The position numbers and the translations under genes are program-made. A model generated the notes under the pieces. The model saw only the letters and a list, made by a program, of their open reading frames with translations, ran no database searches and had not been told where the DNA came from. From a virus (lineage: Duplodnaviria > Heunggongvirae > Uroviricota > Caudoviricetes): a DNA stretch of 11,413 nucleotides. This document shows, piece after piece, positions 8,890 through 9,221 of the stretch. How positions within the stretch are numbered: the first letter of the stretch is position 1; every line of letters starts with the position of its first letter. The stretch is from IMG/VR virus record IMGVR_UViG_2579779002_000004. One strand, 5' to 3'.

Positions 8890-8903
8890 TCCCCGCACAG
8901 ATA

Positions 8904-8920
8904 AGAATAAGTCTTATTCT
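8904..8920. promoter_or_regulatory. AT-rich palindrome AGAATAAgtcTTATTCT just upstream of the lipoprotein gene; candidate operator, loosely Fur-box-like
   Basis: A 7-3-7 perfect inverted repeat, 15-31 bp upstream of the lipoprotein start codon and within GATAAGAATAAGTCTTATTCT. Resemblance to the Fur consensus GATAATGATAATCATTATC is partial only. Confidence 0.3.
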
Positions 8921-9221
8921 AACAATGCCGCCCTGTCGGTCATCAATCCTCTGCTTAATGGCAACGACAATTATCCGACTTAAATCACAAATCAGACACA
9001 TGACATAACAGGGCTTGCGAGGTAACACATCGTCCTGTTTCTTCCACCATCGCACCGGACTGGCGACTATGAGGGGACAACGCCGCGCTCCGTTAACGCG
9101 GTAAACCCCGGTGTGTATCGTTTTTGATTATCCCCGCACACTCGCGCAGAGGAGTCTCCCTGTCGGGCTGCGGTCTCTGTTAATGAGGGAATACAGCGAC
9201 GATACGGCGCATCAGCAAAAC

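Follow-up and report, generated by a model that had tools for sequence, protein, structure and literature searches.

Iron starvation is met in the host, and TonB-dependent receptors, which serve as doors for many phages and colicins, are then most abundant. The overlap of the -10 end and the transcription start is the usual place for repression by Fur. Among lambdoid phages, the stx1 promoter of the Stx1-converting phages is repressed by iron and Fur, as Calderwood and Mekalanos reportedly demonstrated by experiment in 1987. In E. coli K-12, the 'nohA' Fur site of the Qin prophage has been verified by gel shift (PMC2189734 Table 4). For the phage TonB-like lipoprotein family, the literature yielded no described function or Fur control, and the phiv142-3 paper, considered as a source on the gene, was set aside as unrelated to it. 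Here we describe a probable weak Fur operator at the promoter of such a lipoprotein gene, which is carried as prophage cargo.

The analysed DNA is a stretch of 11,413 nucleotides (hereafter the window). The region matches E. coli chromosomes at 100% and lies in the late part of a lambdoid prophage whose head module is of the HK97 type; its minus strand carries the genes of Rz (9222-9773), a TonB family protein (8883-8557), an HNH endonuclease (8183-7818) and the small and large terminases in this order. Strain CFSAN061761 has the prophage inserted at ompW; it sits there (L105:22577-23296) ~3 kb from the host's own tonB, a nearness that is probably a coincidence. A perfect 18-bp palindrome (CAGTTAACATGTTAACTG, 7708-7725) is located between the HNH and small-terminase genes of the window, the intergenic position that holds the cos site in HK97-like phages. 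The major capsid gene (3305-5242, minus strand) is closely followed by a GC-rich hairpin whose 10-bp stem is perfect (ACGGGAGGCGCACGCCTCCCGT, 3269-3290) and which is probably a terminator or attenuator. An IS3-family insertion sequence occupies 10172-11385, with an OrfA containing HTH_Tnp_1 and an OrfB containing the rve integrase core; Rfam recognises an ALIL frameshifting pseudoknot within it (10453-10569, 121.5 bits). This element is not annotated at the corresponding place in CFSAN061761, so that the window stems from another strain or another copy of the prophage.

The TonB family protein starts with a lipoprotein signal peptide (MKRNLPLIILLSSLVMGC) bearing the lipobox VMGC, and the remainder is a TonB C-terminal domain (Pfam TonB_C, PF03544; 8.9e-15, 55.4 bits against a cutoff of 24.6). 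It shares 38% identity with residues 153-230 of E. coli TonB and keeps the PQYP motif with TonB Q160, and its PDB matches, at 1e-15, are to TonB C-terminal domains only. The membrane anchor and proline-rich spacer of TonB are missing, with the lipoprotein signal peptide in their place. Both Q160 and strand beta3 have described roles in the region that pairs with TonB boxes (PMC11658791). A PADLOC search gave no match for the lipoprotein. In PHROGs the protein falls into phrog_1267, 'Rz-like spanin' (1.7e-42), a label probably transferred from the position next to Rz, the protein being clearly a TonB C-terminal domain lipoprotein.

Comparison with related Stx phages and phage YYZ-2008 revealed that they share 9036-9221 and lack 8557-9031, so that the gene and its upstream region constitute an inserted cargo unit, or moron (Table 1); the related Stx phages possess the flanks on either side of it. 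The unit is inserted between phage genes and has its own predicted extended -10 promoter, and its allele B is expressed in a lysogen. Downstream of the gene, a hairpin marks a possible end of the transcription unit.

Table 1. Positions of the lipoprotein gene, its promoter elements and neighbouring features in the window.
Feature	Position	Strand	Basis or remark
Best Fur site of the M9 model, GATAAGAATAAGTCTTATT (AATAAGACTTATTCTTATC on the minus strand)	8900..8918		13.1 bits
Extended -10, TGtTAGAAT	8916..8924	-	promoter scan; conserved part of the upstream region
Weak -35-like hexamer, ATGACC	8938..8943	-	promoter scan; 16-nt spacer to TAGAAT (8921-8916)
Shine-Dalgarno, GGGGA	8890..8894	-	read from the sequence; 6 nt before ATG 8883
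108-aa lipoprotein gene, TonB C-terminal domain	8557..8883	-	RefSeq 'TonB family protein', WP_000828072.1
Hairpin CCGGCAGGGTAAGTCTTGTTCTGTCGG	8483..8509	-	~50 nt after the stop codon; without a T-run
ylcI/ynfO-type DUF3950 gene	8225-8425	+	borders the inserted unit
Inserted moron unit, approximate extent	8426..9035		between the DUF3950 gene and the conserved stretch downstream of Rz

A sigma-70 scan revealed a single promoter-like site on the strand of the gene, a TAGAAT hexamer after a TG, with the transcription start predicted near 8908-8909. This extended -10 is invariant in 80 IMG/VR copies, and is kept as TGTCAGAAT in allele B and as TGTTAGTAT in a distant phage group (P0034). The -35-like hexamer is not kept in allele A', as expected for an extended -10 promoter. 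The conserved, RefSeq-annotated start codon is the ATG at 8883, which fits the GGGGA upstream of it; relatives possess AGGA or GAGGA at the same Shine-Dalgarno place. The upstream ATG at 8889, which the earlier note had taken as the start, is ATA in the other allele.

The predicted promoter is overlapped by a perfect 17-bp palindrome, AGAATAAG-t-CTTATTCT (8904-8920), in which a repeat search found two arms of 8 nt each (8904-8911 and 8913-8920), 100% complementary and 1 nt apart. The perfect inverted repeat and the promoter -10 proposed in the earlier note are thus both found here, the predicted extended -10 (8924-8916) overlapping the palindrome; however, the layout is 8-1-8, one pair more than the 7-3-7 described there, and with ATG 8883 as the start the palindrome lies 21-37 nt upstream, not 15-31 bp. 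It is AT-rich, has a 1-nt centre and covers ~-12 to +5 of the promoter, with the predicted transcription start inside. Together with its flank, the element (8900..8920) reads GATAAG-AATAAG-t-CTTATT-ct, an array of hexamers in a forward-forward-x-reverse layout. In simulated windows of the same composition, perfect palindromes of this kind (arms of 8 nt or more, loop of 3 nt or less) occur 0.76 times per window, with at least one in 49% of the windows, and the real window has three; the palindrome alone is therefore not significant, and was not used as evidence by itself. A reading as an RNA element or terminator was rejected, since a scan of 8500-9300 gave no terminator-like site and the palindrome region had no Rfam match. 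The hairpin downstream of the gene contains the segment AGGGTAAGTCTTGTTCT, which, once inverted, agrees with the promoter palindrome at 14/17 positions. The likeness stops at the flanks, is absent from allele B and is possibly due to chance; 0.03 matches are expected in the 19-kb locus.

The likeness to Fur operators was quantified with weight matrices trained on experimentally supported E. coli K-12 coordinates (Chen et al. 2007; PMC2189734 Tables 3, 4), with the regions taken from MG1655. A first matrix in the classical 19-bp register, on which the training sites score 11.8-22.5 bits, gave borderline values of 11.1 bits at the palindrome-centred 8903-8921 and 7.2 bits at 8900-8918, in addition to a higher score, 12.1 bits, for the non-promoter stretch 8527-8545. 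With a borderline value and a higher non-promoter site, this matrix was dropped in favour of a rebuild in the single-dimer register (M9), made from 18 K-12 sites centred on the published coordinates; its values correlate with the published information values (Ri) at r=0.975. On the M9 model, 8900-8918 is the top site of the 11.4-kb window, followed by one of 8.7 bits, and is the only match of at least 10 bits in the 19-kb late-region stretch of the prophage (L001); 28 kb of the prophage's early region gave no match of at least 13 bits. Among footprinted operators kept out of the training, tonB scores 8.4, fur 6.2, fepB 15.4 and fhuF2 14.5 bits, and strong Fur sites score 18.4-28.9 bits. The site of the window accordingly falls at the low end of the verified-site range, above the tonB and fur operators, near those of fepB and fhuF2 and well below the strong sites. 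Chen et al. tested 13 sites of 12-26 bits, and Fur shifted every one of them (PMC2189734). As background, 50 kb of K-12 outside the known sites contain three matches of at least 13 bits, all of them in the AT-rich DLP12 prophage, and 144,643 control positions of the homologue loci contain nine, which gives a chance of ~0.001-0.003 for such a match per 40-nt promoter core.

Further analysis placed the site between the last 3 nt of the predicted -10 and ~+10, over the predicted start. Apart from one position, the left 13 nt are those of the footprinted fecA site in the training set, and the preferred base is kept at 12/19 positions. Measured against a Fur box of at least three NAT(A/T)AT hexamers, GATAAG-AATAAG-t-CTTATT has the layout, but each of its hexamers ends in G, not T. 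No training site has a C at position 8, as this one does, and 3 bp separate the centre of the best Fur register (8909) from that of the palindrome (8912). Against the 7-1-7 inverted repeat TGATAATnATTATCA, the element matches 9/14 of the core. The partial resemblance to the Fur box mentioned in the earlier note amounts to 13/19 of the 19-bp consensus (8900-8920); four other sites of the window tie with it, and plain consensus matching was discarded as uninformative. Scoring with a Fur weight matrix, which the same note had named as a check, gave a positive but weak result on the M9 model, the site being the best in the window.

A simpler homologue search returned E. coli alleles only, whereas an exhaustive HMMER search of representatives reached distant relatives, small lipoproteins of the same build with 36-51% identity, whose contigs were scored together with further IMG/VR phage loci. 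In Klebsiella/Salmonella-type phages, the genes follow the order spanin, TonB_C, HNH and terminase, and the promoter of the TonB_C gene reads TGTTAGTATTGATAATTATTATCAAT. Other homologues come after the lysis cassette, or between Rz and terminase in a lambda-like prophage; further ones are chromosomal, on a plasmid or beside a pyocin S/immunity pair. With distances taken from the start codon to the first base of the 19-mer, the P0034 phage group has a box of 26.3 bits at -31 (ATTGATAATTATTATCAAT, itself a perfect palindrome). Boxes were also found on two short contigs (P0035, 24.7 bits; P0038, 20.2 bits; both at -32), at two chromosomal loci (P0039, 21.2 bits at -33; P0044, 14.5 bits at -60) and in a second phage group (II; 26.8 bits, ~-60 from the likely start). 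The P0037 phage group, with its site at -37, has 14.7-20.9 bits in some members and a decayed site of 5-8.6 bits in most. In total, boxes of 14.5-26.8 bits occur in seven lineages, in five of which they start at -31 to -37; the site of the window starts at -35. Allele B, the plasmid (P0075, 8.3 bits at -33), the lambda-like prophage (P0099, no Fur box), the pyocin cluster (P0139, no Fur box) and most P0037-type phages have no site or one of less than 9 bits.

The P0034 promoters have the extended -10 in common with the window, where it reads TGTTAGAAT (TGTTAG-AT), and the two promoters therefore appear homologous. In P0034 the Fur box fills the stretch between the -10 and the ribosome-binding site, for which the window and P0034 give no confident alignment; the element of the window may thus descend from the strong box or have been rebuilt. 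Judged by these sequences, a predicted Fur box in the promoter slot is a family trait of the TonB_C lipoprotein genes, and the boxes of the homologues offer the decisive support for reading the element of the window as a putative Fur site. The suggestion of a Fur-like operator in the earlier note is thereby supported computationally, by the M9 score and by the Fur boxes in the same slot of the homologues. Two contigs (L239 and L240, 1-1824) encode a 107-aa TonB_C homologue (38% identity) directly after S-type pyocin/colicin DNase and immunity genes. No Fur box was found upstream of this homologue, whose setting hints at a role in countering the TonB-dependent import of bacteriocins.

Within E. 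coli, the two main alleles A and B together occur in ~1,600 of 5,426 complete genomes, the window carrying allele A, which is also present in strains such as O55:H7 DEC5E, O103:H11 and many STEC. In allele A' (87% protein identity) the element is fully preserved, with the adjacent spacer changed at 7/13 positions; A and A' often share long identical stretches, which makes this a weak sign of constraint. Among 80 near-identical IMG/VR copies of allele A, the proximal arm and the -10 are constant, and the distal arm or its flank has three variants. The M9 score falls to 7.2 bits in ACGTATTCT (1/80 loci) and to 9.4 bits in TTCTAATC (3/80 loci, and also L190 and L199 in a later scan), and is unchanged in the third. 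Allele B (70% protein identity) is found in phage 21, ev017, LF82 Perceval and many ExPEC strains; it keeps ATTGTCAGAATAAGAC, is without the distal arm because of a 13-bp indel, and shows no Fur-like site in its upstream region (M9 0.7 and -9.3 bits). In LB, expression of the allele-B moron of LF82 exceeds the prophage background 8-fold, and the macrophage comparison gives a log2FC of 0.26 (not significant) for allele B, 1.36 for the host tonB and 7.1 for bor (PMC9928086). The unresponsiveness of allele B fits a promoter that has lost its operator, as the model predicts for this allele, and its expression without the site indicates that Fur control is dispensable for the gene. A 418-bp contig labelled Modestobacter excelsi (L006), an actinobacterium, contains a 69%-identical fragment of the lipoprotein, most likely an assembly contamination.

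Altogether, we consider it rather probable, on the evidence of the sequence comparisons, that Fur has a weak operator at 8900-8920, on the promoter that drives a prophage moron. The moron, whose product is a lipoprotein consisting of a TonB C-terminal domain, would be transcribed leftward from the extended -10 TGtTAGAAT (8924-8916), starting near 8908-8909. When iron is present, a Fe2+-Fur dimer would bind AATAAGACTTATTCTTATC and block RNA polymerase, because the site overlaps the -10 end and the transcription start; under iron limitation, the gene would be derepressed along with the host TonB-dependent receptors. Fur binding of this weaker site, the iron response of expression and the role of the protein are what we infer here.

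The first alternative is a decayed relic of an ancestral strong Fur box, in which allele A has dropped below useful affinity, allele B has been deleted for the site and the promoter is essentially constitutive in lysogens. The relatives with 20-27 bits against 13.1 bits here, the decay seen elsewhere in the family (5-8.6 bits in most P0037-type phages against 14.7-20.9 bits in some relatives), the expression of allele B as a moron without the site and the natural variants of allele A that lower the score further all speak for such a relic. We nevertheless regard it as unlikely, as random decay should not leave a perfect 17-bp palindrome or the preferred base at 12/19 positions, the score still exceeds those of the proven tonB and fur operators, and all sites of at least 12 bits bound Fur in vitro (PMC2189734).

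The element might instead be the operator of another dimeric regulator, of host or phage, with the half-site AGAATAAG, the likeness to Fur being a by-product of an AT-rich palindrome laid over a -10-like hexamer. Its symmetry is indeed perfect about 8912 and not about the Fur register, both arms depart from the Fur consensus in the same way, and, according to the matrix values, any palindrome on a TAnAAT hexamer gains Fur score automatically. However, only 2.2% of arm-shuffled palindromes reach the observed score on the classical matrix, and another regulator would leave the true Fur boxes in the same slot of the homologues unexplained. A lambdoid repressor or Cro operator was rejected, since 28 kb of the same prophage, including the repressor/cro-like immunity region, contain no related dyad (up to 3 mismatches); in the late region, the sole other match to the palindrome is the weak one in the downstream hairpin. 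A regulatory motif common to phages was likewise discarded, the other IMG/VR occurrences of the 17-mer being either within unrelated coding sequence (GKNKTYSFS) or singletons. We know of no E. coli regulator motif that fits, those of RcsB, ArgR and Zur, among others, being off in spacing or sequence, and we hold this explanation to be improbable.

Hardly likelier is a functionless palindrome, composed of a proximal arm that is simply the -10 and discriminator and a distal arm that came as a ~13-bp allele-specific insertion by template switch: alleles A and B have only the proximal block ATTGT(T/C)AGAATAAGAC in common with the distal arm in the 13-bp indel, the 80 copies combine a constant proximal arm with a variable distal arm and flank, a template switch from the opposite strand yields perfect palindromes without selection, and about one perfect palindrome of this size is expected per window, yet neither the coincidence with the Fur-box slot of homologous promoters nor the flanking GATAAG hexamer, which extends the Fur-like array past the palindrome, is explained by it.

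Should Fur control the promoter, iron starvation would turn on a common cargo gene of E. coli prophages; taken alone, a further weak Fur box is ordinary. Periplasmic export of TonB C-terminal fragments reportedly inhibits TonB-dependent transport, as Howard et al. are said to have found in 2001, so that a copy tethered by lipid and produced when iron is limiting should compete for TonB boxes. By analogy with the interaction between the TonB C-terminal domain and the TonB box, the lipoprotein is probably a periplasmic competitor for TonB boxes, and a free, periplasm-anchored domain of this kind would be expected to interfere with TonB-dependent receptors. More tentatively, and with some doubt on our part, small lipid-anchored TonB C-terminal domains could be a widespread Fur-gated cargo of phages, plasmids and bacteriocin clusters, acting as periplasmic TonB-box decoys that block the entry of competing phages and colicins or pyocins by the TonB-dependent route. 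If so, this would be superinfection exclusion or protection from bacteriocins of a new, iron-timed kind, with the lipoproteins made exactly when the host raises its TonB-dependent receptors; the window would then carry a weakly repressed allele, and allele B would have escaped to constitutive expression. The predicted operator points to a testable link between iron sensing, prophage cargo and phage or bacteriocin resistance, for which the alleles with and without the operator form a natural experimental pair.

Among the described systems, the element comes close to the Fur operators at the promoters of E. coli iron-uptake genes, above all tonB, fepB and fecA (Fur box GATAATGATAATCATTATC), which likewise have AT-rich hexamers arranged forward-forward-x-reverse over the core promoter. 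It also shares with E. coli Fur operators a score in the footprinted range, first 13 nt that are close to fecA and a product with a TonB domain. Unlike typical Fur sites, it is weaker and has G for T at hexamer position six and C at site position 8, and, unlike the operators of E. coli iron uptake, the putative site is on a prophage moron. The Fur boxes 'nohB' of DLP12 and 'nohA' of Qin have a similar setting, downstream of the lysis genes and near the ylcI/ynfO-type DUF3950 and small terminase genes, and show that Fur sites occur in such a part of lambdoid prophages. However, they are strong (26.8 and 23.4 bits on M9, respectively) and sit in the ylcI-nohD and nohA-ynfO intergenic regions, where the window has no counterpart, and K-12 is without a TonB_C gene. 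In another locus, a Fur site lies between the HNH and small-terminase genes (L226:1471-1495; 14.5 and 16.9 bits on the classical matrix), and sites of this type match 'nohB' and 'nohA' of K-12 DLP12 and Qin (L090, record 580601; L091, record 1636600). Strong Fur boxes of 21.8-25.9 bits are likewise present in L242 (near 2319), L249 (near 2415) and L250 (near 1868), ~650-1,200 nt downstream of the start of the TonB_C gene, as is the site of L226. Fur sites beside phage packaging genes seem to recur; the window itself has none of this type.

Upstream of borD in DLP12, a Fur-like site of 15.2 bits (ATTGTTAATATTTATTAAT) was observed at a distance of 96 bp (L090, K-12 record position 578989); given this site and the rise of bor by 7.1 log2 in LF82 (PMC9928086), bor/iss may be under iron control. 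Like the lambda bor/iss morons, the gene described here encodes a small lipoprotein, directly follows Rz and is expressed from the prophage, and the two are neighbours in allele-B phages; unlike it, bor is on the opposite strand and unrelated in sequence, the TonB C-terminal domain being found here. The stx1 system differs in that its cargo is a toxin and its regulation experimental, whereas here the product is a TonB-domain lipoprotein and the regulation is predicted. Both are nonetheless late-region cargo genes of lambdoid phages, each with its own promoter containing a Fur-type dyad and with expression in the lysogen at low iron, which in our case is a prediction.
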